Positions 6,194-58,158 of a stretch of DNA of 64,000 bases are shown here, in pieces. The stretch lies in assembly GCA_035516035.1 (NCBI GenBank), contig DATJAS010000006.1, forward strand, positions 8,522 to 72,521, read 5' to 3'. Numbering within the stretch: position 1 is the stretch's first letter; the number at the start of each line of letters is the position of its first letter. A program made the position numbers and the translations under genes. The notes under the pieces are model-generated. The model was not told where the DNA came from and ran no database searches. It saw only the letters and a list, made by a program, of their open reading frames with translations. This DNA is from Bacteroidota bacterium. Its GTDB lineage: Bacteria > Bacteroidota > Ignavibacteria > UBA10030 > UBA6906.

Positions 6194-6617
6194 GACCCGG
6201 CGCGATTTCCTGAAGCTCGCAGCGGCTGCATGGGGAGCACTCTGCGCACTCCCCGTGATCGCGATGGTGCTCCAGTATATCACGCCTGCCGCCCCCCGCG
6301 GCGCATCCGCACTCCCCGTCATGGTCGGCAGGACGACGGACTTCTCCGAGGGAAGCGTCAGGATCGTGCGGGTCGGCAGGGACCCGGTGATACTCATCCA
6401 TTCGGCTTCAGGTCAGTTCAGGGCACTCTCGGCCCGCTGCACGCACCTGGGATGTGTCGTGCAATACCAGGATCTCCCTGTCCCGCACTTCGCGTGCAAC
6501 TGCCACGGGAGCCAGTTCGACTTCAACGGGAACAATATCGCGGGCCCTGCACCCAGGCCGCTTCCTCCGTATCGCGTGACGCTGGAGGGACAATCTGTGT
6601 ATCTTTCAAAGGCTTAG
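6180..6617 (+). CDS. petC: Rieske [2Fe-2S] protein of Rieske/cytochrome b complex 1
   Basis: Twin-arginine signal TRRDFLKLAAA. Cluster boxes CTHLGC and CNCHGSQF. Confidence 0.85.
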   Translation: MPAAETRRDFLKLAAAAWGALCALPVIAMVLQYITPAAPRGASALPVMVGRTTDFSEGSVRIVRVGRDPVILIHSASGQFRALSARCTHLGCVVQYQDLPVPHFACNCHGSQFDFNGNNIAGPAPRPLPPYRVTLEGQSVYLSKA

Positions 6618-6630
6618 AGTAGAATATCTC

Positions 6631-11901: not shown

Positions 11902-13396
<1,495 letters not shown>

Positions 13397-13397
<1 letters not shown>

Positions 13398-43170: not shown

Positions 43171-44019
43171 ATGGGCGGGACGCCGGGCATAGAGTCGCTC
43201 CTGGGCCGGATACCGTACGAAGAGGCCGCGGCGTACGTGCGGGGGCGGATCCCCTCGCCTCCCGGGATCGCGCTCGTCCTCGGCTCCGGCCTCGGCGACT
43301 ATTCCCCCCTCGAGGGGGGGCTCACGTTTCGCGCGGGGGAAATCCCCTCATATCCCCGTTCGACGGTGAGCGGCCACCGGGGGGAGGCCGTCTTCGCGCG
43401 TATCGCCGGGAGCGACGTCCTCGCGTTCCGCGGCAGAATCCATCTCTACGAGTGCAACGACGCCGCCACGGTCCTCTTCCCCGTCGCGCTCGCGCGGGCG
43501 CTCGGCGCCCGGGTGATGATCGTGACGAACGCCGCGGGGGGCATCAACAGGCAGTTCGTCCCGGGGGACCTCATGCTGATCACCGATCAGATCGACATGA
43601 CGCTCCACGGGGAGTGGATCCCGGCGGAGCGCACTGGGCCCCGGCGCACGTATGACGCGGCGCTCTGCGCGCTGGCCATGGAGGCAGCCCTCCGGCTGGG
43701 GGTGCCGCTCAGGCGGGGGGTCTACGCCTCCGTCAAGGGGCCATCATACGAGACGGCCGCGGAGGTGGAAATGCTCCGCCGCCTCGGGGGGGACGCCGTC
43801 GGGATGTCGACGGTAAAGGAGGCGTCGCTCGCCGCCTCGCTCGGCATGCGCGTCATGGGCATCTCCTGCATCACGAATAAGGCGGCGGGAACGGGGGGAG
43901 GAAAACTCGACCACAGCGAGGTGACCGTGGTCGCCTCCACCGTGAAGGCGCGCTTCGCGGATCTCCTCACCGAGTGCATTGCGGGCCTCGGCGCTCAGGC
44001 GCGGGGGAACAACCTGTAG
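43171..44019 (+). CDS. Purine nucleoside phosphorylase (PNP/MTAP family, PunA-like)
   Basis: LGSGLG, GHRGE..F, TNAAGG, GPSYETAAE..MLR.LGGDAVGMST. Start moved to ATG 43171. Confidence 0.85.
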   Translation: MGGTPGIESLLGRIPYEEAAAYVRGRIPSPPGIALVLGSGLGDYSPLEGGLTFRAGEIPSYPRSTVSGHRGEAVFARIAGSDVLAFRGRIHLYECNDAATVLFPVALARALGARVMIVTNAAGGINRQFVPGDLMLITDQIDMTLHGEWIPAERTGPRRTYDAALCALAMEAALRLGVPLRRGVYASVKGPSYETAAEVEMLRRLGGDAVGMSTVKEASLAASLGMRVMGISCITNKAAGTGGGKLDHSEVTVVASTVKARFADLLTECIAGLGAQARGNNL

Positions 44020-44462
44020 AGCATCAGGTAGACGAGCACGCCCGTCACGGAGACGTAGAGCCAGACGGGAAGCGTCCACCGGGCGATCTTCCTGTGCAGC
44101 GCGAATTTCCGCTTCAACCCCCGGGCGAGCGTGATGATCGCCAGGGGGGGAACCGACGCAGCCAGCACCGTGTGCGTGGCGAGTATCACGAAGTAGACCG
44201 CGCGCACGGGCCCCCCACCGCCGAACCTCACGGTACCGACCAACGCATGATAGAGAACATAGGATGAGAGGAAGAGCGTCGAGCAGGCGACCGCGGCGAT
44301 CATGCACGTCCTGTGCGCCCTGACGCGCCTCTGCCTGATGAAGTAATAGCCCGCCAGGAGGCAGAGCGCGCTTGAGGCGTTCAGTATGGCGTTCAGGAGC
44401 GGGAGATCGCCGATCGACACGGCCCCCTCACGAGCCGAGGAACCGGTCGACGGCCATTGCAA
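43995..44462 (-). CDS. DUF420 membrane protein (often linked to haem-copper oxidase clusters)
   Basis: LPLLNAILNASSALCLLAGYYFIR.R....H with four TM helices. It overlaps the ctaB stop, and its 3' end overlaps the convergent PNP gene by 25 nt. Confidence 0.7.
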   Translation of the reverse strand: MQWPSTGSSAREGAVSIGDLPLLNAILNASSALCLLAGYYFIRQRRVRAHRTCMIAAVACSTLFLSSYVLYHALVGTVRFGGGGPVRAVYFVILATHTVLAASVPPLAIITLARGLKRKFALHRKIARWTLPVWLYVSVTGVLVYLMLYRLFPRA

Positions 44463-45333
44463 TCATCAACAGGGGAAGGTAGACGAGCGAGGCGATGAAG
44501 AGGCGCCGGGCCGCCGGACCGGTCCTCTGCACGAGAAGCATCGCCGCGCATCCTGCGAAGACTCCCCCGAGAACGAGAGCAGACAGGGCGTAGACCGGGC
44601 CCGCTTCCCCGAGCGCCGCAAGGAGGAGCGAGACGGGAACGAGCGCGACGGCGTATGACAGCGACTGGACTCCCGTCTTCTTCCCGTCGGCGTCCGTCAC
44701 GGCGAGGAGACGGTATCCCCCTTTCGCATAGTCGTTCCTGTAGATCCAGGCAAGCGAGAGGAAGTGGGGCATCTGCCAGAGGAAGAGTATCCCGAACAGG
44801 ACAAAGGCCCCCGCACCCGGGACCCCTGCGGCCGCCGTCCAGCCCATCACGGGGGGGATGGCTCCCGGAAACGCGCCGATGAGCGTCGCCATGGGCGTCA
44901 GGCGCTTGAGCGGCGTGTAGAGGAGGAGATACGTCGCGCACGTCACTGCGGCCAGCGAAGCCGTCACCGCGTTGAGCCTGGTCGCCAGGAGGAGGAGTCC
45001 CCCCGCCACGAGCAGAATCCCGAATATGACCGCCTCGGCAAGTCCGATCCGTCCCGAGGGGAGCGGCCGCTGCTCCGTGCGCTTCATGAGCGCGTCGAAC
45101 TTCCGCTCCATCGCCTGGTTCAGCGCCCCCGAGCCTCCTCCCACCATCGCGGTCCCGAGCGCGAGCGCGAGAGCCCCCGCAGCATGGGGAGTCCCCGCGG
45201 AGCCGAGCATGTATCCCGCGAGCGACGTCAGCACCGAGAGGAACGTCAGCTCCGGTTTCGTGAGCGCGAGGTAATCGGCCACCCGCGTGCGCTCCAGTGC
45301 GAGCGCCCCGGGGGGCGTGAGGTGCGTGCTCAT
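44428..45333 (-). CDS. ctaB: Protohaem IX farnesyltransferase (haem O synthase)
   Basis: YLALTKPELTFLSVLTSLAGY, NQAMERKFDALMKRTEQRPLPSGR, and WQMPHFLSLAW. Start at ATG 45333 (ATGA overlap). The track's 551-aa form is an artefactual extension. Confidence 0.9.
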   Translation of the reverse strand: MSTHLTPPGALALERTRVADYLALTKPELTFLSVLTSLAGYMLGSAGTPHAAGALALALGTAMVGGGSGALNQAMERKFDALMKRTEQRPLPSGRIGLAEAVIFGILLVAGGLLLLATRLNAVTASLAAVTCATYLLLYTPLKRLTPMATLIGAFPGAIPPVMGWTAAAGVPGAGAFVLFGILFLWQMPHFLSLAWIYRNDYAKGGYRLLAVTDADGKKTGVQSLSYAVALVPVSLLLAALGEAGPVYALSALVLGGVFAGCAAMLLVQRTGPAARRLFIASLVYLPLLMIAMAVDRFLGS

Positions 45334-46346
45334 GGGCGTGCAGGCTCCGCGATCACATTCCCGGTACCGAGCCTCTCCCGAGCCGGCGCGAGGCCGAGTG
45401 CGCGCGCCGCAAGGAGGACGCAGCTCCCCAGGAGCAGCGCGCCGGTCGCCACGTGGGCGGTCGCGACCTGGACCCCCTTCCCCGTCCAGACCGTGAGCGC
45501 GCCGAGGAGAATCTGCACCAGGACCAGCATGACCTCGACGATCGCCGGTTCCCGCAGACTCCGCTCGGAGCGGTACGTCCTCAGGATGTGCACGCCGCAG
45601 GCGATCACCGCGGCTCCCGCCAGGAGCGCGCCGAGCCGGTGCGCGAAGTGGATCCAGATCTGCGCGGCGCTCACCGGCGGCAGATCGTAATCCGTGCTCC
45701 GTTCCATGTTGACCCGGGCGAGCCCATCGGCGTCCGCCGGGGGGAGGAGCGCCCCGTATGTGAGGGGGAAATCCGGGATTGCAAGGCCCGCATCGCTGTG
45801 GCGCATCCAGGCGCCGATGACGAGCTGGAGAAAGACGGCAGCCGCAGCGGCGAGGGCAAGCGCACGCGTCAGAGGCGCGACAGGGACCGGGAGCGCGGAA
45901 CGCTCGAGCCACGTGCGCGACGTCACCAGTGCGATCAGTATCGTGAGAGAAAAGAAGGACTGTGCGAGCGTCGCGTGCGCGACGGAAACCGGCGTCGGCA
46001 GCAGGTAGAGCACCGTCAGTCCCCCCAGCACCCCCTGGAGGATCACCGCCAGGAGCGCCGCCAGGGCGAGAAACCGGACCCACCGCCGCTCTTCCCGCCG
46101 CCAGGTCCAGGCGCAGAGGACGACCGTCAGGCAGCCGACGAGCGTCGCGACCATCCTGTGTCCGTGCTCGTAGAGAATCCCCCCCACCATCGGCGGCATC
46201 ACCTGCCCGTACGAGAGGGGCCAGTCGGGAACGGCGAGCCCGGAACCCGTGCTCGTCACCAGTCCCCCGGCGATCACCAGGAGGAATGTCGCGCAGGCGG
46301 TCGCCACGGCGAAGCGGTGAAGTCCCCTGTGGTACGTGCCGGTCAT
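45330..46346 (-). CDS. ctaA: Haem A synthase (COX15/CtaA family)
   Basis: [28 protein letters not shown], and a second-half repeat with HFAHRLGA. Start at ATG 46346 (ATGA overlap with the coxB stop). Confidence 0.8.
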
Positions 46347-47290
46347 TGTGTGAGCTGTGCCTCCTGGTCCGCGACCCATGCCCTGTACTCCTCGGGCGTC
46401 TGGACCGTCACGAAGCCCCGCATCCGGTAGTGCCCGAGCCCGCAGAGCTGCGCGCAGGCGATCTCCGTCGGCGTGTCGGGGCCCAGCACGACTTCGCTCA
46501 CGCCGGCGCCCTTGAGCGCCGGGAAGAGATCGTCGGTGAGCGGCGATCCCTTCGCCAGGATCGTCTGACCGTCCTTCCCCGCGTAATCCGCCAGCGCCAC
46601 GAACGTCGCGCACTCATCCGGCACATGCCCGGAGGCCACCGGGATTGCGCGCGCCAGCGCGTGCTGCACATCGGCGGTCGTCGCCGTCGGCGTGAACCAG
46701 ACGCGGATCGACTGGCCGGGGACCGCGTCCTGTTTCACGCGGAAGAGGGGGAGATTGAAGCTGTGTATCACGTCCTTGGAGCTGAGATGAATGACGACCG
46801 GCTTCCCCACCGGCAGATTGAGCTGGTTGATCGTCACGATGTCGTCCTTCGCCGCCGGATCGTTCCTGTCAAGTCCCAGCGGATTCTCGGGCGTGATCAG
46901 TGCGATATCCGTCCTGCCGAACACGCCGTCCGGCCCGGGGTAGTGCACGTTCCAGGCGAATTGCTCCGCAACGATCCGGACGACCGTGGCGTCCGACTCC
47001 GGCGGGATATCATTGACGCGCATCGACCAGAGGGGGATCGCGAACCCGATCAGGAGAACGGCCTCGACGACCGCCACGACCGCCTCGAGATAGCTGGAGG
47101 CGTGCGTCCGCACGCCGTGGTAGTCGGCTGCCCGGTTGCGCGAGCCCCGGAAGCGGAAGAGGACGTAGACAAAGTACGTCCCCCAGCCCGCGAAGAGCAC
47201 GAGCATCAGCCAGTGGACGAGTATGATGATCCTGTCCACCAGCGGTCCCTGCGCCGAGGCGTCGAACGGAAGTCCCAGGAACTCACCCAT
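46343..47290 (-). CDS. coxB: Cytochrome c oxidase subunit II (CuA), no fused cytochrome c domain
   Basis: Two N-terminal TM helices, DVIHSFNLP, and the CuA loop [12 protein letters not shown]. Confidence 0.85.
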
Positions 47291-47531
47291 GCGCGGCGGT
47301 CTCCTTTCCGGCGAGGAGCCGGGCTCTCCTGCGCAGACGGAGGAACATCGTTCCGAATGCCGCGAGCACGCCCCCGGTCACCCCGAGGAGGCTGATGATC
47401 GCCGCGGTCATCCCCTGCGTCGCGGAAGACCCCGGCTCGCCGTAGCAGACCGGGCAGGCCGCGGCGCCCGACGCCCAGGCACACAGGAGGAGGGCCAGGA
47501 GCGGCGCCCGGCGGAGCAGTTGCGGAGTCAT
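47283..47531 (-). CDS. Small secreted/anchored CxxC protein (82 aa) inside the oxidase cluster
   Basis: Translation is [36 protein letters not shown]...: a signal peptide, CPVC, then one TM helix and a basic tail. It overlaps both neighbours. Confidence 0.45.
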
Positions 47532-47734
47532 GGCGAATCGATCCCTTTCAGTTTTGAGCGAACCCTGATCCCGTACACGACCAGCGCAGCCGCCGCCGCG
47601 CACGCAGCCACGGCCGCGGCGAGCATGCCCGGCGATCCCCCGGCCACAAACGCATTGACGGACCAGGCCGCGACGCCCAGCGCCAGGAGCACGGAGCACG
47701 CCACGAAGATCAGGTGGAATGTCCTGAGCGACAC
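47528..47734 (-). CDS. Small two-TM membrane protein (68 aa) inside the oxidase cluster
   Basis: MSLRTFHLIFVACSVLLALGVAAWSV...AAAVAACAAAAALVVYGIRVRSKLK. Tightly packed between the CoxIV-like and CxxC ORFs. Confidence 0.4.
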   Translation of the reverse strand: MSLRTFHLIFVACSVLLALGVAAWSVNAFVAGGSPGMLAAAVAACAAAAALVVYGIRVRSKLKGIDSP

Positions 47735-47735
47735 G

Positions 47736-48035
47736 CTAGAGCCCCCGGTCGGCGAAGTGGGAGACCGGCAGGAACATCAGCGCCAGGAAGAAGATCGCCG
47801 TGAGTCCCAGCGCGGCGTAAATGAGCTTCTTTTCCGAGATCAGGTGCATGAAATACGCGGCCACGAGAGAACCTTTGACGGCGGCGATCGCGAGCGCGAC
47901 CGCGATCGCCAGCGGCGGGTCGAGGTGAAACGTCGAAATGGTGACCGTGATGATCGTGAGCGCCATGAGCGCGACGAAGACGGTCACGTACACGCGAACC
48001 TGTTTCCTGACGCTCCCGGCGTTGGCAGTGTCCAT
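47736..48035 (-). CDS. Cytochrome oxidase subunit IV-like protein (CyoD/QoxD/CtaF-like, 99 aa)
   Basis: Three TM helices and AAVKGSLVAAYFMHLISEKK. Start at ATG 48035 (MDTANAGSVRKQ). The track's 313-aa ORF is an artefactual extension across coxC. Confidence 0.6.
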   Translation of the reverse strand: MDTANAGSVRKQVRVYVTVFVALMALTIITVTISTFHLDPPLAIAVALAIAAVKGSLVAAYFMHLISEKKLIYAALGLTAIFFLALMFLPVSHFADRGL

Positions 48036-48043
48036 GCGGTCTC

Positions 48044-48634
48044 CTACAGGAGATAGAGAACGGGAAAGAGGAAGATCCAGACCAGATCCACGAAGTGCCA
48101 GTAGAGGCCCGCCACCTCCACGCGGTTCGTGAACCGCGCAGGCTCGGCGCGCCACATCGCCGCACCGGGTCCGAGGAGGTAGCTGTTCACGATGATCCCC
48201 CCCACGATATGGAGCGCGTGGAGTCCCGTGAGGGTGAAGTAGATCGCCATGAACGTGCTCGTCGAGGGGGTGAGGCCGTGCTCGAACTTGGCGGCGTACT
48301 CGAAGCCCTTGATGACCAGGAAGACGCAGGCCAGCGCGACGGTGGATCCCATGTAGATCCGGAAGCGCCCGAGCGATCCCGTCGCGATCGAGGCCCACGC
48401 CATCACCATCGTGACGCTCGAGGTGATCAGGACGATCGTGTTCACGGTGGCCAGGGGAATGTTCAGGTGCTCGTAGCCGTGCGGCCACGTCGTCGCGCCC
48501 ACGCGCAGCAGCACGTAGGAGGAGAAGAGCGCCCCGAAGAGCATCACCTCGGAAGCCAGGAAGAGCCAGATCCCCAGTTTTGCGTTGTAGAGGCCGGTGT
48601 CCGGCCGGGGGTCGACGGTGTAGGGAATCTCCAT
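48044..48634 (-). CDS. coxC: Cytochrome c oxidase subunit III
   Basis: LGIWLFLASEVMLFGALF, YFTLTGLHALHIVGG, and AGLYWHFVDLVWIFLFPVLYL. Confidence 0.85.
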   Translation of the reverse strand: MEIPYTVDPRPDTGLYNAKLGIWLFLASEVMLFGALFSSYVLLRVGATTWPHGYEHLNIPLATVNTIVLITSSVTMVMAWASIATGSLGRFRIYMGSTVALACVFLVIKGFEYAAKFEHGLTPSTSTFMAIYFTLTGLHALHIVGGIIVNSYLLGPGAAMWRAEPARFTNRVEVAGLYWHFVDLVWIFLFPVLYLL

Positions 48635-48636
48635 GG

Positions 48637-50400
48637 TCAGTGCGCCTCCGCCGGTGCGTTTTGCGGGACGAAATCACGTCCGTTGCCGGGCACGCTGTAC
48701 TCGTAGGGGCCCCGGTGCACCTCGGGCACCGCGCTGAAATTGCCGTGGGCCACGGGGGGAGAGGACGTTGCCGCCCACTCGAGCGTCGTCGCCTCCCAGT
48801 GATTGGCCGCCACGGGCGCTCCCCTGCGCATGCTCCAGAAGAAATTGACGATGAACGGGATCTGCGCGAGCCCCAGGCACCAGGCGGCGATCGACATGAA
48901 CGTGTTCAGGTGGAGCACCCCCTGCGCGTGCGCGTACTGGGCTCCCCCGTCATAGAGGCGGCGCGAGACGCCCGCGAGGCCCTGGATGAACATCGGCATG
49001 AACACGCAGTTGAGAAACGTGAACGAGAGCCAGAAGTGTATCTTGCCCAGCAGGTCGTTCATTTTCCGCCCCGTCACCTTCGGGAACCAGTAGTAGACGC
49101 CGCCGAAGAGGGCCAGCAGCGTTCCCGGCGCGACGACGTAGTGAAAGTGCCCGATGACGTAGTACGTGTCGTGCAGGTGGATGTCGGAAGGGGCGAGCCC
49201 CAGGGGGAGCCCGGTGAGTCCGCCGATGCCGAACATCGGCAGGAACGCCAGCGCGAAGAGCATCGGCGTCGTGAACCGGATCGACCCTCCCCACAGCGAC
49301 AGGAACAGGGCCGTCAATATGATGATCGAGGGAACGGAAATGATCATCGTCGTCGCCTGGAAAAACGAGCTGATGGCCGTGCCCATGCCGGTGAGAAACA
49401 TGTGGTGCGCCCAGACGATGAACGACATGAACCCGAGGAACACCGTGGCGTACACCATCGAGCGGTATCCCCAGAGGGGCTTGCGCGTGTTGTTGGCGAT
49501 GATCTCCGCGACGATCCCCATGGCGGGGAGGATCAGCACGTACACCTCGGGGTGGGCCAGGAACCAGAACAGGTGCTGCCACAGGAGGGGGTTGCCGCCC
49601 CCCGAATTTGCCAGGGCCTGCCCGCTCACCACGAGCCCGCTCGGCATGAAGAAGCTCGTTCCGGCCAGGCGGTCCATCAGCTGCAGGACCCCCGCCGCCT
49701 CCAGCGGCGGGAAGGCGAGCAGGAGGAGGAACGACGTTACGAGCTGTGCCCAGACGAAAAACGGGAGCCGCATGAAGGAGAGTCCCTTCGCCCGCAGCTG
49801 GAAGATCGTCGTGATGAAATTGACGCTCCCCAGGAGCGAGGACGTGATCAGGCAGATCATCCCGAAGAGCCACACCGTCTGCCCGGTCGTGGCGATGACG
49901 GAGAGGGGCGCGTAGGAGGTCCATCCGGATGCGGCGGAGCCGCCCGGGAGGAAGAAACTGGAGAGCATCGTGAGCCCTCCCGCGGCGTAGACCCAGTAGC
50001 TCATCATGTTGAGCTTCGGAAACGCCATGTCGGGCGCCCCGATCTGCAGGGGCATCACGTAGTTGCCGAACGCGCCCACGGCCAGCGGTACCACGCCCAG
50101 GAACACCATGATCGTCCCGTGCATGGCGCCGAGCTGGTTGTAGAACTCCGGCAGCATGATCCCGTCGGGCGCGCGGGAGTCGCCGAGCAGGCCGCCGATC
50201 AGGGGAATCGCCTGGCCGGGGTATGCGAGCTGCCAGCGCATGATCATCATCAGCGTGAACCCGAACAGGAGGAACAGGAGCGCCGTGATCCCGTACTGGA
50301 CGCCGATGGTCTTGTGGTCCTGCGAAAACACGTACGTGCGCCAGAAGCCGTGGCCACTCCCGTGGTCCGCCGCGTGCGCGTGCGCCGCCGGTGCGCTCAC
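48637..50400 (-). CDS. coxA: Cytochrome c oxidase subunit I (haem-copper oxidase, A family)
   Basis: DHKTIGVQYG, GAPDMAFPKLN, WFLAHPEVYVLILPAMG, HHMF, and GHFHYVV. Confidence 0.95.
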   Translation of the reverse strand: MSAPAAHAHAADHGSGHGFWRTYVFSQDHKTIGVQYGITALLFLLFGFTLMMIMRWQLAYPGQAIPLIGGLLGDSRAPDGIMLPEFYNQLGAMHGTIMVFLGVVPLAVGAFGNYVMPLQIGAPDMAFPKLNMMSYWVYAAGGLTMLSSFFLPGGSAASGWTSYAPLSVIATTGQTVWLFGMICLITSSLLGSVNFITTIFQLRAKGLSFMRLPFFVWAQLVTSFLLLLAFPPLEAAGVLQLMDRLAGTSFFMPSGLVVSGQALANSGGGNPLLWQHLFWFLAHPEVYVLILPAMGIVAEIIANNTRKPLWGYRSMVYATVFLGFMSFIVWAHHMFLTGMGTAISSFFQATTMIISVPSIIILTALFLSLWGGSIRFTTPMLFALAFLPMFGIGGLTGLPLGLAPSDIHLHDTYYVIGHFHYVVAPGTLLALFGGVYYWFPKVTGRKMNDLLGKIHFWLSFTFLNCVFMPMFIQGLAGVSRRLYDGGAQYAHAQGVLHLNTFMSIAAWCLGLAQIPFIVNFFWSMRRGAPVAANHWEATTLEWAATSSPPVAHGNFSAVPEVHRGPYEYSVPGNGRDFVPQNAPAEAH

Positions 50401-50434
50401 CTGGATGTGCCCTTTCGCGTGTGTGAACGGTCCA

Positions 50435-51130
50435 TTACTTCCCCTGGTACGTAAAGTCCGCCGCGGCGGTGCCGCTGGCGGCGACCTTCACCTTCATCGT
50501 CTGCGTGCCGTACTTTTCCTGCCATGTCTCGATCGTGTACTCTCCCGCCGGGAGGTTCTTCAGGTGGAACGTCCCGTCGTTGCCCGTGACCGCGAAGAAG
50601 GGATGGCTGAAGACGCCGATGTACGCCCCCATCCATGTGTGCACCTCGCACTTCACCTTGAAGACCTCGGGCTTGTCGAACTTCTTCGCCAGGCGCATCC
50701 CCTGTTTCGGCTGGGCGACGTTAAACTGCGGATTGTCCTTCGAGAGTGAATGGACGTTGTGGAGCGTGGGGTCCGAGTTGACCACGTCGAGTTCCTGCCC
50801 CGTCTGGATCCCCACGACGTGCGGATCGTACTGGCAGCCCTTCTGGTCGAATTCGATCTTTGCCGCCGGTGGATCGAACTTCCGGCTCCCGAGCCCCTCC
50901 TTCACGTAGACCAGCACGTTCCTGAGCGTCCCGTTCGGGTTCACCACCACTTCCTCGCCGAAGACGGGGGTCTTGTGCTGCTTGACGCATACGGGGTCGG
51001 CGTTCATCATGATGCGCGCCGGCTTGGGCGCGCTCCCCGTGAATGACACCTTGCCGGCCACATCGCCGGCCGCCGCAGTGCAGGCGCACGCAATGATCAG
51101 CGCGCAGATGGCTCCGCTCGCGTACTTCAT
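50435..51130 (-). CDS. Secreted type-1 copper (cupredoxin) protein flanked by carboxypeptidase-regulatory-like beta segments
   Basis: Signal peptide. Candidate T1 Cu ligands are His in TLHNVH and C-x2-H-x2-M in KCEVHTWM. Confidence 0.65.
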   Translation of the reverse strand: MKYASGAICALIIACACTAAAGDVAGKVSFTGSAPKPARIMMNADPVCVKQHKTPVFGEEVVVNPNGTLRNVLVYVKEGLGSRKFDPPAAKIEFDQKGCQYDPHVVGIQTGQELDVVNSDPTLHNVHSLSKDNPQFNVAQPKQGMRLAKKFDKPEVFKVKCEVHTWMGAYIGVFSHPFFAVTGNDGTFHLKNLPAGEYTIETWQEKYGTQTMKVKVAASGTAAADFTYQGK

Positions 51131-51173
51131 TCCTGGACTTCCTCCCGGTTAATGGTTGTTATGGATGCAACAC

Positions 51174-53798
51174 TCATTGTGCGGCCACGACCGGCCGCGC
51201 CGGCCTGCCGATCGAAATCACGTAGTCGCGGATCGCCGTCTCCTGCTTCCGGGCGTCTCCCCCCAGCACGTCGGGGAGCGCGGACTGACCGTCGGGGAAG
51301 AACGTCGGCATGCGGGTCCCCTCCTGGAGCTTGTTCGGGTCGGCCAGCCACTCGATGATCCACTCGGGCTTCAGGCGGTCGCGTGCCTTCGTCAGGTCGG
51401 GCGCCAGGTCCGCCGTCGATCCCGAGCCGGGAGGCGGGGCGTTCCCGACCGGGTGGCACTTGATGCACTGGAATTCGTTGAAAATCGTCTTCCCCACCGG
51501 GAGGAGCGCCGGGTCGGGGCGGAACGCCGCGTAGTCCCTCACCTCCAGCTCCTGGTTGCTCAGCGCGAGGAAGTACTTCGTGAGCGAGGAAATCTCCTCA
51601 TCCGTCAGTGAGAACGTCGGCATCCGGACTTTCAGCCAGGGCCTGATCCGGTCCGGCGCGCCCGTCGTGGAGGGGCTCGTGAGGAAATCGCGCAGCCACG
51701 GCTCCTGCACCTTCTTCCCCTCCCCCGTGATGATCGGGGGGAGGAACGCCGGGTCGTCGATCACCGCGCTGATGAACCGCCCCTCCCCCTCGAGCTGGTG
51801 GCACTGCCGGCAGTTGTAGCGGTACGCGATGCGGCGTCCCGCCTCGATCTCCTGGAGCCGGGCGTCGAACCTCTTCACGTACCTGGGGTCGGGCACGTCC
51901 TTCGTCTCGGAGAGGAGGAAGAGCGAAATCTTCGCGATTTCGCTGTCGCTGAACGCGAACACAGGCATTTTCTGGACGATCCTGTCCGTCTGGAACACGC
52001 GCGAGTCGCGGAGCTTGTTCTTCACCCAGTCGTGCCACGTGTGGGGCACGTGGGTGTCCCCGAAATCCATCTCTTCCACGCGCTTGCGCCCGAAATTGGA
52101 GAGCGACACGGACACCCGGCTCTCCTTCTCCATCCCGGGGATGAGGTGGCAGCCTGCGCAGCCGTACTCCTTGATGACGGCCTCCCCGCGAGCGATGCGC
52201 TCCGGGGAGGTCACGTCGATCGCCTCCGGGAGGAACGTCCGGTCGTCTTTCAGCGTCACGAGGTACGCCGTCACGTCGCGCGCCTCCCCCTCCGTCAGCC
52301 GCAGGTTCGGCATCTTCGTCGTCGGGTTGTAGTGCCGGGGATTCCTCACCCAGTCGAAGATCCAGTCCGGGCGCGCCTTGCTCCCCACGCGCGTCAGCTC
52401 GGGAGCGATGTCATAACTGGTGCCCCGCGCCGCGCGGACGTTCGCCTGGTCGCCGATCGCGTGGCAGCCCAGGCACCCGACGGACTCGACGATTCCCTTC
52501 CCCTTCGCCGCGTCCCCCCCGGGAAACTTCCCGGCGAGCCGGAAGCTGTCGCGCGGCGCCAGGCTGACGAGATACGCCGTCACCGCGGAGGCCTGTTCGT
52601 CGGTGAACCGGAAGTTCGGCATACGCGTGTGCGCGTTGTATTCCTTCGGGTTCTTCACCCAGCGCTCGATCCAGGCGGGGTCCGTCTTGTAGGCGATGCG
52701 CGCAAGCTCAGGGCCGATCCGCTGGAGGTCGGTGTACCCCTTGATCTCGTGGCAGCCGAAGCAGCCCGACTCGATGATCAGCCGGCGCGAGTCGGAGAAG
52801 ACGGGCGCCCCCTCCAGGTGACTCTCATTTTCATGACACGCGGTGCACGACGCCCAGACGTCGATCCCCTCCAGCATGGGATTCTCCCAGTAGGGGTCGC
52901 CGCTCCCGTGCGCGGTGGCCGCCGTAAGCGCGGGTCCCTGTCCCCGGTGACAGGGCGTGCAGCCGATGACGTCGGGCTTGTGGAGCGACAGGAGCTCCGG
53001 GAGCGGATGCCTGGTAAACGGCTCGGGGGCGCTGTCCATCACCTCTTCGTTCCACCCGAGGTGGCATGTCTGGCAGCGGTCGATGCGCGCCTTCGGGTCG
53101 TTGAAGGGGTTCTTGTCGTAGTCGTCCAGCATCACCTGCCGGATTTCGATCGGCGCGGTGCGCGCCTTCTTCACCTTCGCGTCCCACTTGTCGACCTTCT
53201 TCAGGAGGTCCGTGATCGCGTTCTGGGGCCTGCGGACCGCCTGGCGGTACCTGTTCACCGCCCCCATGAGCGTGTCGCGCTCCCGTTCCAGGCGCGCGAT
53301 CACCGCCTGGTGCGCCGCCGTTTCGGCCTCGTCGGCCGCCAGGCGGGATTTCTCCTTCAGGTCCTCCTCCCCTTCATGGAGCGACTTCTTATAAAAGTAG
53401 TACGCCTCGTCGCCGCGGCTCTTGGCGAACTGGAAGCGCCGGTTCTCCCGGGCGAGCGAATCGAGGACCTCGTCCACGCGCGAGAGCGCGGCGCGGTACG
53501 CGGGTCCGGCGATCGAGTCTTCCGCGGCCGCAAGCTCGGCGGAACGGTCGGCGAGCGCCGAGGAATCCATTTCAGCGGCCGCCTGGTTCTCCTGCTCCTG
53601 CATCTTCGCCGCGGCGAGGTCCTGGTAGGCCCGCTGCACGTCCTTCCAGGGCCGCCGGGTGATCACCTCGTCGACGACCGCCCACATCGTGCCCAGGAAG
53701 AGGAACCCGGCGAACAGGATGTAGAGTGTGCTGTAGTCGCGCTCTTCGATCGGGCGCGCACCGCGCTTTCGGAACACGCGTGTTTCCCTTTCGTCCAC
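51174..53798 (-). CDS. Membrane-anchored octahaem cytochrome c (874 aa)
   Basis: Eight CxxCH motifs: CQTCH, CTPCH, CTACH, CFGCH, CLGCH, CAGCH, CRQCH, CIKCH. The last five each sit in a class-I-like repeat with a downstream (R/K)MP(N/V/T)(F/L) Met. N-terminal TM helix plus a ~200-aa Ala/Glu/Arg/Lys-rich predicted coiled coil. GTG start at 53798. Confidence 0.8.
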   Translation of the reverse strand: MDERETRVFRKRGARPIEERDYSTLYILFAGFLFLGTMWAVVDEVITRRPWKDVQRAYQDLAAAKMQEQENQAAAEMDSSALADRSAELAAAEDSIAGPAYRAALSRVDEVLDSLARENRRFQFAKSRGDEAYYFYKKSLHEGEEDLKEKSRLAADEAETAAHQAVIARLERERDTLMGAVNRYRQAVRRPQNAITDLLKKVDKWDAKVKKARTAPIEIRQVMLDDYDKNPFNDPKARIDRCQTCHLGWNEEVMDSAPEPFTRHPLPELLSLHKPDVIGCTPCHRGQGPALTAATAHGSGDPYWENPMLEGIDVWASCTACHENESHLEGAPVFSDSRRLIIESGCFGCHEIKGYTDLQRIGPELARIAYKTDPAWIERWVKNPKEYNAHTRMPNFRFTDEQASAVTAYLVSLAPRDSFRLAGKFPGGDAAKGKGIVESVGCLGCHAIGDQANVRAARGTSYDIAPELTRVGSKARPDWIFDWVRNPRHYNPTTKMPNLRLTEGEARDVTAYLVTLKDDRTFLPEAIDVTSPERIARGEAVIKEYGCAGCHLIPGMEKESRVSVSLSNFGRKRVEEMDFGDTHVPHTWHDWVKNKLRDSRVFQTDRIVQKMPVFAFSDSEIAKISLFLLSETKDVPDPRYVKRFDARLQEIEAGRRIAYRYNCRQCHQLEGEGRFISAVIDDPAFLPPIITGEGKKVQEPWLRDFLTSPSTTGAPDRIRPWLKVRMPTFSLTDEEISSLTKYFLALSNQELEVRDYAAFRPDPALLPVGKTIFNEFQCIKCHPVGNAPPPGSGSTADLAPDLTKARDRLKPEWIIEWLADPNKLQEGTRMPTFFPDGQSALPDVLGGDARKQETAIRDYVISIGRPARPVVAAQ

Positions 53799-53799
53799 G

Positions 53800-54684
53800 T
53801 CAGATATTGAACCAGGGTGTGACGAGGATATACTTGATGTTCAGCGTGAGGCGCAGGATGATCTTGACCGGGAGCGACGCCATGATCAGCAGCAGGCCCG
53901 CCACGATCGTGTAGCGCAGGGGACCCAGCTTCCGGACCACGTCCGACTTCCGCTTCCAGAGGTAATAGACGACGCCGAGGCTGAACCAGGCCAGGATCGT
54001 CGCGCTCCCGATCGCCATCGCCGCGGGGTTGAGCGAGTCGTCCACCCTCCGCGTCGGCACCCCGAACAGCTCGGACCAGTCGACGTTGGTCAGCGCCACC
54101 ACGCGATGCGTGTCCCAACGCTCCCACGGCATGAAGAGGTTCCACCCCGGTCCGCGGAAAAACGTCCCGAGGACGATAAGCGACACCCACATCACGAGGA
54201 AGCCGAAGCAGAACACCAGGATCGCGAAGCGGCGCTCGCGGAACGTGTAGTAGCCGTTCCCTTTCGGGTTGATGTCGATATACGGGATGGCGCAGAGTCC
54301 CAGGATGATGAGCGTCGGGATCATGACGCCGGCTATCCACGGGTCAAAATAGACCAGGATCTCCTGCAGCCCCAGGAAGTACCAGGGCGCCTTGGAAGGG
54401 TTCGGCGTGAGCGACGGGTTGGCGGGCGCCTCCAGGGGAGCGTTGAGCGTGATCGACCAGACCGTGAGGAGCGCCATCACCAGGAGCGCCGCGAGGAACT
54501 CCACCCTGACCAGGTAGGGCCAGACCTGCACCTTGTCCCCCAGCTCGGCCTCCTCGGGCGACGGCCGGCGGTCGTTCCGCACGGCGCGGGAGAACGAGTA
54601 CCACGTGTAGAAGATCGTCAGCACGAGCATCAGGACGATCGGAACGTTGTCCGGCTTCGAGAGTATCGTGGTGAGGTTATGCAT
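53800..54684 (-). CDS. Cytochrome b C-terminal (subunit IV-like) protein, extended, complex 2
   Basis: PNPSKAPWYFLGLQE aligns with the PEWY Qo region. There are several extra TM helices compared with a typical subunit IV. Confidence 0.8.
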   Translation of the reverse strand: MHNLTTILSKPDNVPIVLMLVLTIFYTWYSFSRAVRNDRRPSPEEAELGDKVQVWPYLVRVEFLAALLVMALLTVWSITLNAPLEAPANPSLTPNPSKAPWYFLGLQEILVYFDPWIAGVMIPTLIILGLCAIPYIDINPKGNGYYTFRERRFAILVFCFGFLVMWVSLIVLGTFFRGPGWNLFMPWERWDTHRVVALTNVDWSELFGVPTRRVDDSLNPAAMAIGSATILAWFSLGVVYYLWKRKSDVVRKLGPLRYTIVAGLLLIMASLPVKIILRLTLNIKYILVTPWFNI

Positions 54685-54708
54685 CGGCGTCCATGGAAAA
54701 CGTGCCTG

Positions 54709-55500
54709 TCAGTTCTTTTTCGCCGCCGGGTCCGGCCCCGAGATCCCGCCGTCCTTCCGGATCCGCCAGAAATGGACGATCATCAGCACGGCGCCGATCA
54801 GGGGAAGGAAGATGCAATGGAGCACGTAAAACCGGAGGAGCGTCGGGGGTCCCACCTGTGTCCCCCCCAGGAGGACGAACCTGACGTCGTTGTTGATCTT
54901 CATGCCCAGCTCCGGGCCGAAGGGTCCCTCGTGCCCCAGCAGCGGCGTCGCCCGCGCCATGTTGGTCCCCACGGTCACCGCCCAGATCGCCAGCTGGTCC
55001 CACGGGAGGAGATACCCGGTGAAGCTCAGGAAGAGCGTGAGCGTCAGCAGGATGACGCCCACCACCCAGTTGAACTGGCGCGGCGCCTTGTAGGATCCGG
55101 TGAGGAACACGCGGAACATGTGGAGCATGACGGTGATGACCATTGCGTGCGCCGCCCAGCGGTGCATGTTCCGCATGAGGGGACCGAAGGCGACGTCGTT
55201 CATGAGATATTTCATGTCGTCGTACGCGTACTCGGCGGCCGGGCGGTAGTAAAACATCAGGATCACGCCCGTGACGGTGAGGACGATAAAGAGCAGGAAC
55301 GTGATCCCCCCCATCCCCCAGGTGTACCCGATGTTGGTCGCGTGCCGCGTGATGCGCACCGGGTGGAGATGGAGGAAGACGTTGTCGACGATCTGGAGCG
55401 CCCTGTTTCGCTGCGTATCCTGGTAGTTGTGCCGGAAGACGGACCGGTACACTTCCGTCTTCTGCATCTTCTCGCGCAGCGTGTCGAATATGCCGAGCAT
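54709..55500 (-). CDS. Cytochrome b6-like N-terminal subunit, complex 2
   Basis: [36 protein letters not shown], and [21 protein letters not shown] (the four haem His ligands). Confidence 0.9.
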
Positions 55501-55518
55501 CGGCGGCGTCCTCCTGGT

Positions 55519-56127
55519 CTATCCGTTGTACTTCAGAAACGCCCCGGGCTTCGACCACTCCCCCTTCTCATAGAGGAACTTGACGCTCCTGTCCACAATG
55601 ATCTGTCCGTCGTCGTCCAGCGTGATCTTCAGGCGTTCCAGCGGACGGGGAGTGGGACCCTCGAAGTTGATCCCGTCCTTGTGGTAGCCGCTCCCGTGGC
55701 AGGGGCACTTGAACTTGTTTTCCGCCGGGAGCCACCGCGGGGTGCAGCCCAGGTGGGTGCAGATCGCGGAGAGCGCGTAAAACCCCTCCGCCTCACGGAC
55801 GATCCAAACGCGGTAGTCATCTTTATACTTCTCGTTCACCTCCCCCACGACAAAATCGTCGGGGAACCCCGCCTTGAACGCGGAGGGGGGCTCGTACAGG
55901 ACGCGCGGCACCATCAGGCGAAGGGCCCCGATCGTCGCGGTACTGATAAATGAGAAAAAGGCGAGCCAGCCCGCCACGTTGAGAAAGCTCTTGCGGCTCA
56001 TCCGCCAGATGCCCCTGTCGTCGTCCGGGGGACGGTCCTGCTTCGGTTTGCGCAGTTCGGGCGCTTTCGGCGCGGGAGCGCCGCCTGCAGGGGGCTGAGC
56101 GGCGCCCGGGGTCAGATCATCGGGCAT
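55519..56127 (-). CDS. Rieske [2Fe-2S] protein of complex 2
   Basis: CTHLGCTP and CPCHGSGY boxes. Long Pro/Ala-rich N-terminus with an RK-type (MSRKSFL) Tat-like motif and one TM helix. Confidence 0.85.
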   Translation of the reverse strand: MPDDLTPGAAQPPAGGAPAPKAPELRKPKQDRPPDDDRGIWRMSRKSFLNVAGWLAFFSFISTATIGALRLMVPRVLYEPPSAFKAGFPDDFVVGEVNEKYKDDYRVWIVREAEGFYALSAICTHLGCTPRWLPAENKFKCPCHGSGYHKDGINFEGPTPRPLERLKITLDDDGQIIVDRSVKFLYEKGEWSKPGAFLKYNG

Positions 56128-56341
56128 GGACGTACCTCATCGCATAAAAGGTCCGGGGGGTCGCCCCTCGGCGTGCGGCGGGTGAATATGATGTCGCGGC
56201 GGTGTGTGCGGGTGAGAGGATGCGGCACAGCGGAGACCGTGTGTGGCCGGGAGACAGCAGACGATGCAACATTGACAGAAACAGAGTCGATTGTTCGAGA
56301 TTGCTGCGCCGCAGGAGCATATTCCAATGAGCTAGGACAAA

Positions 56342-56370
56342 AAGATACAAAAGCCGATTTGAAAAGTCAA
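56342..56370 (-). promoter_or_regulatory. Candidate promoter (TTGACT-N17-TATCTT) for the respiratory super-operon
   Basis: Minus-strand TTGACT at 56370-56365 and TATCTT at 56347-56342. This implies a ~200-nt leader before ATG 56127. Confidence 0.3.
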
Positions 56371-56517
56371 CACGAAACGCACCCGGCATCAAGGAGTTTC
56401 CCGGATACCTCGCAGAAGTGTAAACAATCTCAACGTTGTTTGCTTCTCCCGGCCGATTCGAGTATATTTGTGCCCGGCGTCCACCAAGGGACGGCACACA
56501 GCACCGCTCACACAACC

Positions 56518-58158
56518 ATGGACTGGCTCGACTTCAGGCAGCTCCCACCTGCTTCCGGCGGATTCTCCGAGTTGTTCTTCGACTACATCGACGATTTTGA
56601 AAAGGTGGCCCGGTTTTTCCCCGGCAATTTCCGCGACCTTGCCTCGCTCCCCGGCATCATGGAGCGCATCGACGGCCGCGGGATCGCGCGCGACGTCCTG
56701 AAGGCCGTGCTGACGGAACAGAACTCGGGGAAGGGGGAATCTCCCCGGACGCTCGAGAACATACGGCTCCTGGGCAGCGCGGGAACGTATGCAGTGGTCA
56801 CGGGACAGCAGGTGGGACTCTTCGGCGGACCCCTCTACACGCTCTACAAGGCGATCACGGCTCTTCTCCTTGCGCAGAAGCTCTCGGCGAAGTTTCCCGG
56901 CAAGAATTTCGTGCCGGTTTTCTGGCTGGAAGGGGAAGACCACGACTTCGCGGAGATGAACCACGTGGCCGTGCTGGACCACGAGAATCTCCCGGTCCGC
57001 ATCGAATACCTCCCCGGCGGTACCATGCCTGAAAGAAACGTCGGGGCGGTGGGACTCATGTCATTCGACGAGACGATCGCCGCCTGCTGGGCGCGCCTCG
57101 AATCCACGCTCACGGGCACGGAATTCACCCCCCGGCTCATGGAGTCGCTCCGGTCCTGTTATGCCCGCGGGGCGACGTTCGCCGGGGCGTTCCAGGCCTG
57201 GCTCAACAGGCTCCTCCCCGGCTCTGGGCTCGTGTTTATTTCAAGCCTGGAACCCAGGCTCAAGAGAATCCTCTCTCCCCTGTTCGTCCGCGAACTGGAA
57301 GAGTATCCAAGAATTTCCCAGATGGTGATCGATCGAAGTGCCGAGCTGGAACAGAGTTACCATGCCCAGGTCAAACCAAAATCGATCAATCTCTTTCTCT
57401 TTCACAAGGGGGGAAGGTACCTCATCGAGCCGAGGGAGACCGATTTCAGCCTGAAGGGAACACGGGCCTTCTTTTCCAGGGAGCAGCTCATCGCCATCGC
57501 ACGGGAGACGCCGGAACAGCTCAGCCCGAACGTCGTGCTCCGGCCCCTCTGCCAGGACATGCTCCTCCCTACCGTCGCGTACGTCGGCGGACCTTCCGAG
57601 ATCGCCTACCACGCCCAGCTCGGCCCGCTCTACCAGGAGCTTTCGCTCGTCCAGCCGCTCATCTACCCGAGGGCAAGCGTCTCGCTGGTGCAGACGAACC
57701 TCCTCCGCGCAATGGAGAAGTACTCGCTCGAACTGCCGGAGTTCCTGGGGAACGTGGGGGGGGTGACCGCAAAGGTCGTGGAGCAGATATCCGATATCAA
57801 GCTCGACAGGCTCTTCGCGGGCGTCACGACGAACCTGCACGAAGCGCTGGGCGAGCTGAAGTTCGGACTGAACGAAATTGACCCGACGCTCCTCGGCGCC
57901 CTGGAAAACGTCACGTCGAAAATCGACGTCAACCTCGGCGTGCTGAAGGAGAAAGCCGTCGCGGCGCAGAAGCGTCGGAACGACACCGCCGTCCGGCAGA
58001 TCGAAAAGGCCGCCGCCGGTCTCCTGCCGGAGGGAAGCCTGCAGGAACGGGAGCTTTCTCCCCTCTACTACATGAACAGGTACGGGGAAGGCCTCGGCAC
58101 ATGGCTCACGGACAGAATCGACATCGGCGCGTTCCGCCACCAGATCCTTCAGCCCTGA
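56518..58158 (+). CDS. bshC: Bacillithiol biosynthesis cysteine-adding enzyme BshC
   Basis: VVTGQQVGLFGGPLYTLYKAITAL, FWLEGEDHDFAE, and 546 aa as expected for BshC. Start moved to ATG 56518 (MDWLDFRQLP). Confidence 0.85.
   Translation: MDWLDFRQLPPASGGFSELFFDYIDDFEKVARFFPGNFRDLASLPGIMERIDGRGIARDVLKAVLTEQNSGKGESPRTLENIRLLGSAGTYAVVTGQQVGLFGGPLYTLYKAITALLLAQKLSAKFPGKNFVPVFWLEGEDHDFAEMNHVAVLDHENLPVRIEYLPGGTMPERNVGAVGLMSFDETIAACWARLESTLTGTEFTPRLMESLRSCYARGATFAGAFQAWLNRLLPGSGLVFISSLEPRLKRILSPLFVRELEEYPRISQMVIDRSAELEQSYHAQVKPKSINLFLFHKGGRYLIEPRETDFSLKGTRAFFSREQLIAIARETPEQLSPNVVLRPLCQDMLLPTVAYVGGPSEIAYHAQLGPLYQELSLVQPLIYPRASVSLVQTNLLRAMEKYSLELPEFLGNVGGVTAKVVEQISDIKLDRLFAGVTTNLHEALGELKFGLNEIDPTLLGALENVTSKIDVNLGVLKEKAVAAQKRRNDTAVRQIEKAAAGLLPEGSLQERELSPLYYMNRYGEGLGTWLTDRIDIGAFRHQILQP

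Follow-up and report, generated by a model that had tools for sequence, protein, structure and literature searches.

A probable menaquinol-to-oxygen branch encoded by 14 genes of a Bacteroidota genome: a split-b6 Rieske/cytochrome b complex, an octahaem cytochrome c, a cupredoxin and an aa3 oxidase

Respiratory complexes that combine a Rieske protein and a split, b6-type cytochrome b with a multihaem cytochrome c are widespread, occurring in Planctomycetota, Nitrospinota, NC10, Acidobacteriota and Desulfobacterota and, as described here, in Bacteroidota and Omnitrophota. A "cytochrome bc-like operon" with an "atypical octaheme cytochrome c" was reported from Nitrospina gracilis and has conserved counterparts in Kuenenia and M. 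oxyfera (Lucker et al. 2013, PMC3578206). The Kuenenia versions (Kustd1480-1485 and Kuste4569-4574) add a NAD(P) oxidoreductase, and one of them also an HAO-like protein (PMC12954380). Kao & Hunte (2014, PMC4122944) placed split cytochromes b with the motif APWY in a clade whose members come from distant phyla, often from organisms with multiple bc complexes; none was characterised, and reverse operation was suggested. The direction and partners of APWY complexes are debated, a reverse Q-cycle having been proposed, as has NAD(P)H generation in anammox bacteria. Here, we describe a cluster of 14 genes (positions 43995-56127) in which such a complex is encoded together with a cupredoxin, an aa3 oxidase and haem A biogenesis genes. 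The cluster lies in a 64,000-nucleotide stretch of contig DATJAS010000006.1 (forward strand, 8,522 to 72,521; assembly GCA_035516035.1) of a Bacteroidota bacterium of the Ignavibacteria, and this whole stretch is called the window below. To our knowledge, no APWY-type or Nitrospina-Kuenenia-type Rieske/b6/multihaem complex has been purified so far, and no description of a bc-octahaem-cupredoxin-aa3 fusion was found in the searchable literature.

Bacteroidota are menaquinone organisms, and we read the cluster, with a probability of roughly 75%, as one complete aerobic branch that leads from menaquinol to O2 and is most likely expressed as one unit. The arrangement is not a product of chance because the same gene order recurs in many genomes. 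Between the genes of the two complexes, the cluster encodes no electron carriers other than the octahaem cytochrome c and the cupredoxin. An earlier note, made from the letters of the window, had proposed that one or both of them wire the quinol-to-O2 branch, and this proposal was well supported by comparative genomics. The conserved fusion to an aa3 oxidase with a blue-copper carrier would provide a testable physiological context for APWY complexes, namely forward menaquinol-to-O2 respiration.

Layout and identity of the 14 genes

The cluster consists of 14 consecutive open reading frames (ORFs) on the minus strand, given here in transcription order (aa, amino acids; TM, transmembrane).

55519..56127, minus strand: Rieske [2Fe-2S] subunit, 202 aa, one TM anchor (Pfam PF00355)
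54709..55500, minus strand: cytochrome b6-type subunit, 263 aa, 4 TM helices (Pfam PF00033, 156 bits)
53800..54684, minus strand: extended subunit IV, 294 aa, ~6 TM helices (Pfam PF00032)
51174..53798, minus strand: membrane-anchored octahaem cytochrome c, 874 aa (several Pfam Cytochrom_C domains; eight CxxCH)
50435..51130, minus strand: type-1 cupredoxin embedded in a CarboxypepD_reg-like beta-sandwich, 231 aa (Pfam matches, AlphaFold, Foldseek, invariant ligands)
48637..50400, minus strand: CoxI, A1-type haem-copper oxidase, 587 aa (Pfam PF00115, 454 bits)
48044..48634, minus strand: CoxIII, short 5-TM form, 196 aa (Pfam PF00510)
47736..48035, minus strand: CoxIV, prokaryotic caa3-type subunit IV, 99 aa (Pfam PF03626, COX4_pro; NCBIfam TIGR02229 above cut-off)
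47528..47734, minus strand: small 2-TM protein, 68 aa, conserved N-terminus MSLKxFHIxFI (same position in 12 other syntenic clusters, one of them of Omnitrophota)
47283..47531, minus strand: small exported protein, 82 aa, A-C-P/A-x-C-[YF]-G motif, one TM helix and a basic tail (12 other syntenic clusters)
46343..47290, minus strand: CoxII, 315 aa, 2 TM helices, CuA site (Pfam PF00116; NCBIfam CoxB 120 bits, below cut-off)
45330..46346, minus strand: CtaA, haem A synthase, 338 aa (Pfam PF02628, COX15-CtaA; 4-nt overlap with coxII)
44428..45333, minus strand: CtaB, haem O synthase, 301 aa (Pfam PF01040, UbiA; 4-nt overlap with ctaA)
43995..44420, minus strand: DUF420 protein, CtaM equivalent, 141 aa (Pfam PF04238, 153 bits)

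The ORFs were found at the coordinates of the first reading, and the intergenic distances in transcription order were 18, 24, 1, 43, 34, 2, 8, 1, -4, -8, -4, -4 and 7 nt. Adjacent genes overlapped by 4 nt in three cases and by 8 nt in one, and all gaps were 43 nt or shorter, in agreement with the spacing and the several 4-nt overlaps that the earlier note had described. Start codons were chosen by Shine-Dalgarno context and alignment to orthologues. For the DUF420 gene, GTG 44420 with the Shine-Dalgarno sequence GAGGGGG was selected; the alternative TTG 44462 would overlap ctaB by 35 nt. The window has a G+C content of 61-71% and is full of spurious ORFs on both strands, so an ORF listing alone proves nothing, and the identities were settled mostly by Pfam. 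Pfam or NCBIfam identified 12 of the 14 genes. With the fold model and invariant ligands of the cupredoxin, these matches bear out the gene identities and order first proposed.

Tight packing is consistent with one transcription unit, and the 14 genes are most likely expressed from a single transcript. The four longest gaps within the cluster showed only weak folding (-2.7 to -6.2 kcal/mol) without a T-run, and no terminator-like hairpin was present in any gap of the cluster. Candidate signals were located at both ends:

56128..56520, no strand given: divergent non-coding region of 393 nt between the Rieske gene and bshC, holding a sigma-70-like TTGACT-N17-TATCTT (minus strand, 56370-56342) ~215 nt upstream of the Rieske ATG
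43908..43933, minus strand: terminator-like hairpin, a G+C-rich 10-bp stem followed by AGTTTTCC, 62-87 nt past the DUF420 stop and within the 3' end of a convergent purine nucleoside phosphorylase gene

A sigma-70 promoter and terminator scan of the cluster gave internal matches that all fell inside coding sequence; the sigma-70 consensus may not suit Bacteroidota. Terminator-like matches numbered 12, barely above the 6.5 ± 2.8 found in shuffles. These matches were not counted as internal signals. A Rfam scan of the cluster and its leader returned no RNA family match at E up to 0.1.

Quinol oxidation, electron carriers and the oxidase

The Rieske protein contained the boxes CTHLGC and CPCHGS followed by G-Y, so that both potential-raising residues, the Ser and the Tyr, are present. 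The closest solved relative of its soluble domain was PDB 9rk3 (E 3.7e-49, 116 residues), with 9rk4 next. These entries were assigned to Kuenenia stuttgartiensis Kustd1480 and Kuste4569 by the motifs CPCHGSGF and CPCHGSKY, respectively. The measured potentials of the two Kuenenia Rieske proteins are +335 mV for Kustd1480 and +303 mV for Kuste4569 (PMC12954380). In cytochrome b, the haem ligands H113/H127 and H228/H243 were invariant in 28 sequences, their spacing of 14 and 15 residues was b6-like, and the closest PDB matches were b6 chains. Subunit IV had about six hydrophobic segments, compared with three in canonical subunit IV, and carried the Qo motif APWY at residues 99-102. The nearest NCBIfam models were ExtP for cytochrome b (283 bits versus a 290-bit cut-off) and ExtQ for subunit IV (below the 150-bit cut-off).

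The Rieske boxes, the two His pairs and the Qo-motif variant, APWY being accepted as such (PMC4122944), place the complex in the Rieske/cytochrome b superfamily. At the position where b6 and Firmicute proteins have the haem ci Cys, cytochrome b reads WGMGG without this Cys, and the other Bacteroidota members are alike. Relatives from Omnitrophota and Desulfobacteraceae keep the Cys in WCMGG or WCLGG at the same position. With no haem ci Cys, and with an octahaem protein rather than cytochrome f as the c subunit, the complex falls outside cytochrome b6f sensu stricto.

Ahead of helix A of cytochrome b, the segment N[VI]FLH[LI]HPV with H44 and H46 (residues 40-46, window 55363-55383) was almost invariant in full-length orthologues of three phyla. 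An AlphaFold3 study of Kuenenia predicts an extra inter-monomer haem b on His43 or His62 of cytochrome b (PMC12954380). H44 and H46 are near the position of this proposed haem-binding His, a proximity that is a lead and not an alignment-based equivalence.

A cupredoxin, an aa3 oxidase and a bc complex also make up the rus/petI system of the Acidithiobacillus ferrooxidans iron chain. On that model, the APWY complex of the window would run in reverse: the octahaem protein and the cupredoxin would take up electrons from a high-potential donor in the periplasm, part of which would flow downhill to the aa3 oxidase and part uphill, through the bc complex, to the quinone pool. Kao & Hunte proposed reverse operation for the APWY clade (PMC4122944), and the cluster holds the same parts list as rus/petI. 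However, no gene for an outer-membrane cytochrome or a substrate-oxidising enzyme is present in the cluster, the genome has a complete branch of alternative complex III (ACIII) and caa3 oxidase within an organotroph-like respiratory set, and the Rieske Ser/Tyr pair, shared with the Kuenenia homologues, is compatible with forward quinol oxidation. The conserved link to an O2 reductase likewise argues for forward operation here. We therefore regard the reverse scheme as highly improbable and continue with a forward, quinol-oxidising complex.

The 874-aa cytochrome contained exactly eight CxxCH motifs and no further cysteines. All eight were in register in all 26 orthologues (28-77% identity, three phyla), in which H264, H273, H297 and five Met-Pro pairs (M393, M496, M611, M726 and M830) were invariant as well. 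From these invariant residues, the protein is predicted to hold apparently three bis-His haems followed by five class-I His/Met haems. The AlphaFold model (predicted local distance difference test, pLDDT, 72.8) comprised a TM helix at residues 22-46, long helices at 51-214, a poorly modelled trihaem part and five cytochrome-c-like domains. Residues 51-214 form a cofactor-free periplasmic helical region of ~160 residues (pLDDT 84-92). This region was kept in the Bacteroidota and Omnitrophota orthologues and was absent from a Desulfobacteraceae homologue, in which the first CxxCH is at residue 105; our guess is that it serves as a scaffold or dimerisation element. A sequence search of the PDB found no solved homologue of the octahaem protein and returned one weak match, to the last class-I domain only, while a fold search of the PDB gave only generic coiled-coil matches, all at E > 0.1. 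An MFP-like nature of the helical region was not adopted, the matches being a weak one to DevB and fold matches to EmrA/HlyD at E ~1.3. Some NCBI relatives of the protein are annotated "putative octahem cytochrome c".

The 231-aa protein encoded next was confirmed as a type-1 cupredoxin by a confident fold model and an invariant ligand set. Sequence models alone scored low: the Pfam Copper-bind match reached 19.1 bits, under the 21.2-bit cut-off, and NCBIfam pseudoazurin and halocyanin matches were far below their cut-offs. The AlphaFold model had a pLDDT of 88.5, and in Foldseek its central ~100 residues superposed on plastocyanin, amicyanin and pseudoazurin (probability 1.00, target TM-score 0.6-0.7). 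The ligands H124, C161, H164 and M167 were invariant in 23-27 sequences, down to 35% identity, with the amicyanin-like spacing C-x2-H-x2-M. A lipobox-like LIIAC closes the signal peptide. The protein belongs to a large family (2,762 clusters at E up to 1e-10), which is labelled "carboxypeptidase regulatory-like" at NCBI and "plastocyanin" at JGI. The neighbourhoods of the cupredoxin paralogues on contigs C32 and C99 held no respiratory context.

CoxI showed AHPEVY with the D-channel Glu and the HH pair, the signature of family A1. Together with the CuA site and with CtaA and CtaB for haem A, this motif identifies the enzyme as an A1-type aa3 oxidase. CoxII had a complete CuA loop that is conserved in orthologues. 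The motif CxxCH was missing from CoxII here and in 15 orthologues, so the fused cytochrome c of a caa3 oxidase is lacking, as the earlier note had stated. The interval between the HSF strand and the CuA loop of CoxII measured 103 residues, ~65 of them extra. Across orthologous clusters, the interval was shortest in L014, L043 and L044 (35-40 residues), intermediate in this genome and its close relatives (101-104) and longest in L010, L013 and L037 (150-167). On these alignments, the insertion beside the electron-entry site is lineage-specific and hypervariable.

The 68-aa and 82-aa membrane proteins had no family match in Pfam or NCBIfam. They are probably extra oxidase subunits or assembly factors, and a role in copper/thiol assembly may apply. 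The DUF420 protein corresponds to CtaM, a family-A assembly factor that Bacillus and Staphylococcus require at a late stage of building their haem-A oxidases (PMC9145763).

We infer the direction of electron flow, the order of the carriers and any physical supercomplex from these parts. A b6f-like dimeric Rieske/cytochrome b complex, composed of b6 and the extended subunit IV without the haem ci Cys, would oxidise quinol at the APWY Qo site. One electron would pass through the high-potential-type Rieske centre to the membrane-anchored octahaem protein, which would stand in for cytochrome c1/f as a haem wire. From there, it would reach CuA via the lipoprotein-like cupredoxin or directly from the last class-I His/Met domains. 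The aa3 oxidase would then reduce O2 and pump protons, with CtaA, CtaB and the CtaM-like DUF420 protein supplying and inserting haem A.

Conservation, modularity and parallel branches

A scan with one genome per species gave nine loci encoding octahaem relatives. Within the phylum, octahaem relatives were present in 42 of 301 sampled genomes, including six of the seven from the same family, and 20 loci of this phylum sample were mapped with all 14 proteins. The full 14-gene order was found in L013 (a metagenome-assembled genome of Ignavibacteriales), in L030, L032 and L033 of the same family, and in L036, L037, L040, L041 and L042 of a sister family. L043, from another family of the same taxonomic order, had the same gene order except for DUF420, and partial loci on short contigs (L008, L010, L011, L029, L031 and L038) agreed as far as they reached. 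In the cross-genome comparison called for at the outset, the gene order thus recurred in at least ten related genomes of Ignavibacteria-type Bacteroidota, nine of them complete and one lacking DUF420. In L013, the flanking divergent bshC and convergent purine nucleoside phosphorylase genes were the same as in the window, which points to vertical inheritance within the order. In L044, from a different Bacteroidota family, the same five-gene module was followed by CoxII-CoxI-CtaA-CtaB-CoxIII-DUF420, a different order. The conserved synteny and this independent fusion of module and oxidase argue for functional coupling.

Several observations weigh against a single dedicated branch. In Omnitrophota L014 and L016, both halves were present with 1.4 kb and 5.6 kb of other genes, respectively, splitting the octahaem/cupredoxin junction. 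The L014 insert spans 12521-13707; that of L016 (13292-18183) encodes an ECF-type sigma factor, a 731-aa anti-sigma-like protein, a VapBC-like pair and, on the opposite strand, a NuoF-like protein. In L034, L035 and L039, all of the window's taxonomic order, only the four genes from Rieske to octahaem were found, with no oxidase in 3.5-12 kb of downstream DNA. The five-gene module including the cupredoxin occurred without an adjacent oxidase in family f20 (22 of 63 sampled genomes) and in f23. Since the module lacks a neighbouring oxidase in several genomes, an oxidase is not its only possible partner. The loosest junction in close relatives of the same family was that from cupredoxin to CoxI, with projected gaps of ~100-150 nt, compared with 34 nt here; at this seam, or at the octahaem/cupredoxin seam of Omnitrophota, separate regulation is possible. 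In addition, bis-His haems are often of low potential, and it is not obvious how electrons of a high-potential Rieske centre would pass through them. Finally, if APWY complexes run in reverse as suggested (PMC4122944), the direction of flow would differ here too.

Three f20 genomes were examined for oxidases, and each had just one haem-copper oxidase, of ~480 aa, at another locus, read as cbb3-like by length and score. A 148-aa lipoprotein gene lay between the octahaem gene and a shorter cupredoxin without the N-terminal Cys/His segment in f20, and in L039 the module was followed by a gene for a 3,590-aa secreted protein. Green sulfur bacteria have a long PEWY-type cytochrome b. An assignment of f20 to Chlorobiaceae was rejected because its cytochrome b is of the split b6 type, unlike theirs.

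The modules that stand without an oxidase in L034, L035, L039 and f20 would fit a second explanation, in which the bc-octahaem-cupredoxin unit is a general periplasmic electron hub for several donors or acceptors and the neighbouring oxidase reflects co-regulation by O2 or a chance operon fusion. Eight haems exceed the needs of a simple c1 replacement, and the related ExtP/Cbc-type b6 cytochromes of Geobacter, ExtP being the nearest NCBIfam model, are linked to periplasmic multihaem networks. Against this explanation stand the recurrence of the A-type oxidase fusion in at least three arrangements (the window order, L044 and Omnitrophota) and its retention, flanking genes included, across an order-level radiation. 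No other reductase gene was present in or next to the cluster. We consider a general hub unlikely and a dedicated aerobic branch the better account of the cluster.

The remainder of the genome was informative in this respect. The assembly (3.66 Mb, 158 contigs, 99.7% complete) encodes three haem-copper oxidases and four cytochrome b genes. Contig C22 (26058-38102) encodes a classical ACIII (ActA-F) and, after it, a caa3 oxidase in which CoxII is fused to cytochrome c (CASCH) and CoxI is of type A2 (YSHPAVY). A paralogous cluster on contig C135 (1-7542) encodes a Rieske protein, cytochrome b, subunit IV, a 381-aa multihaem cytochrome c, a 270-aa cytochrome c, CcoN and CcoO. Its cytochrome b is 51% identical to that of the window cluster and is also of the APWY type, its 381-aa cytochrome is 32-40% identical to the octahaem protein over the aligned haem region, and it has no cupredoxin. 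At two more loci, a Rieske protein is paired with a long, unsplit PEWY-type cytochrome b, once in the window at ~6180-7701 (plus strand) and once on contig C153 (28020-29575). The latter sits among multihaem cytochrome genes.

The genome thus follows one design principle three times, each time with a quinol oxidase genetically hard-wired to an oxygen reductase of its own: as ACIII-caa3, as bc-octahaem-aa3 and as bc-multihaem-cbb3. The C135 bc-multihaem-cbb3 cluster follows this principle and counts in favour of a dedicated branch in the window. Three separately encoded branches support the idea of dedicated branches, and they also mean that no single branch is obligatory.

Maximum-likelihood trees of CoxI and cytochrome b, midpoint-rooted with long outgroup branches, were not congruent. 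In the CoxI tree, the sequences of Omnitrophota clustered with those of the window's taxonomic order (support 100/99), to the exclusion of L044. In the cytochrome b tree, Omnitrophota joined f20 and f23, outside the window's order, with a support of 84/83 for the join. As far as the two trees go, their disagreement is suggestive of reassortment of modules, and it suggests lateral transfer of the oxidase half in Omnitrophota.

These results bear on a closer form of coupling, a stable and obligate bc-c-Cu-aa3 supercomplex with no diffusible carrier, of which the earlier note had taken the cluster to be the genetic signature. All encoded carriers are membrane-tethered, the octahaem protein by its TM anchor and the cupredoxin by its lipobox-like signal peptide. 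CoxII has no cytochrome c of its own, and the insertion beside its CuA loop is a possible docking surface, as the conserved 160-residue helical region of the octahaem protein is a possible scaffold; the genes keep their order across genomes and are coupled in translation. Gene adjacency is, however, no demonstration of physical association. The CoxII insertion is missing from Omnitrophota L014 and from Bacteroidota L043 and L044 (35-40 versus 101-167 residues), other genomes have the bc-octahaem module by itself or accompanied by the cupredoxin alone, and the incongruent trees point to modules that reassort. The genome also holds redundant quinol-oxidising and O2-reducing branches, with four Rieske/cytochrome b loci of two types plus ACIII. 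The claim of an obligate supercomplex goes further than these findings allow, and the modular distribution, with the split in Omnitrophota, partly speaks against it. On whether the bc and aa3 complexes are physically joined, the genomic evidence is mixed, and we view a stable obligate assembly as possible, if on balance doubtful.

The most far-reaching version would be a new architectural class of hard-wired III-IV supercomplex, with a forward-running APWY complex, possibly an extra haem b, the octahaem protein on a coiled-coil stalk and a lipid-anchored cupredoxin docking on the CoxII insertion. We offer this as a speculative and rather doubtful proposal. If it were true, a clade suspected of reverse or NAD(P)H-producing operation would consist of ordinary aerobic quinol oxidases in many uncultured phyla.

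Relation to known systems

The operon of Nitrospina, Kuenenia and Methylomirabilis shares with the cluster the order and domain types of its first four genes, including a b6-like cytochrome b, an enlarged subunit IV and a multihaem cytochrome c in place of cytochrome f/c1. The octahaem proteins are likened by operon position and description. Compared with the Kuenenia operons, the cluster has no NAD(P) oxidoreductase subunit, no such domains being found in its 14 genes, and no HAO-like octahaem protein. It also differs from the Nitrospina/Kuenenia type in running on into genes for a cupredoxin, an aa3 oxidase and haem A biogenesis. With the APWY clade, it shares the split cytochrome b, the APWY motif and W-x-M-G-G at the haem ci position, a placement made by motifs and by similarity to ExtP and Kuenenia proteins; the Bacteroidota members have WGMGG there and not WCMGG, and so lack the Cys.

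The ExtMNOPQS and Cbc-type systems of Geobacter also have b6-type modules feeding multihaem cytochromes, and they supply the nearest NCBIfam models, below cut-off. Unlike the cluster, they are anaerobic and not tied to an O2 reductase. Elsewhere, Melioribacter roseus has an ACIII with a cc(o/b)o3 oxidase, and in Caldithrix a Rieske/cytochrome b pair sits within the nap locus.

The earlier note had compared the cluster with actinobacterial qcr-cta and ACIII-caa3 clusters built from different parts. The likeness and the differences both hold, and closer precedents, the Nitrospina/Kuenenia/M. oxyfera operon and the archaeal SoxM-type complexes, had been missed. Actinobacterial qcrCAB-ctaCDEF and the ACIII-caa3 clusters of Rhodothermus and Flavobacterium are likewise linked to an A-type oxidase, with a membrane-bound multihaem subunit replacing soluble cytochrome c. 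In the window, this subunit has eight haems, compared with the dihaem cc of actinobacteria or ActA/ActE of ACIII. The cluster further differs in its split b6-type cytochrome b, its cupredoxin and its unfused CoxII, and its oxidase is of type A1 versus A2 in the ACIII-caa3 of the same genome.

Archaeal SoxM-type and haloarchaeal supercomplexes follow the same logic, with a Rieske/cytochrome b unit, a membrane-bound type-1 copper link (sulfocyanin or halocyanin) and an oxidase encoded together (PMC4122944). They have no c-type cytochrome, while the cluster has the octahaem protein, and the relation is one of analogy and not of family membership; the only detectable sequence relation is a weak NCBIfam halocyanin-domain match to the cupredoxin (E 0.0086). 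The coiled-coil-anchored octahaem protein, the two small conserved membrane proteins and the CoxII insertion are candidate new parts. All parts identified fall in known families, apart from the two small ORFs without a family match, and their combination is an uncharacterised variant of known machinery whose core has already been published from genomes.

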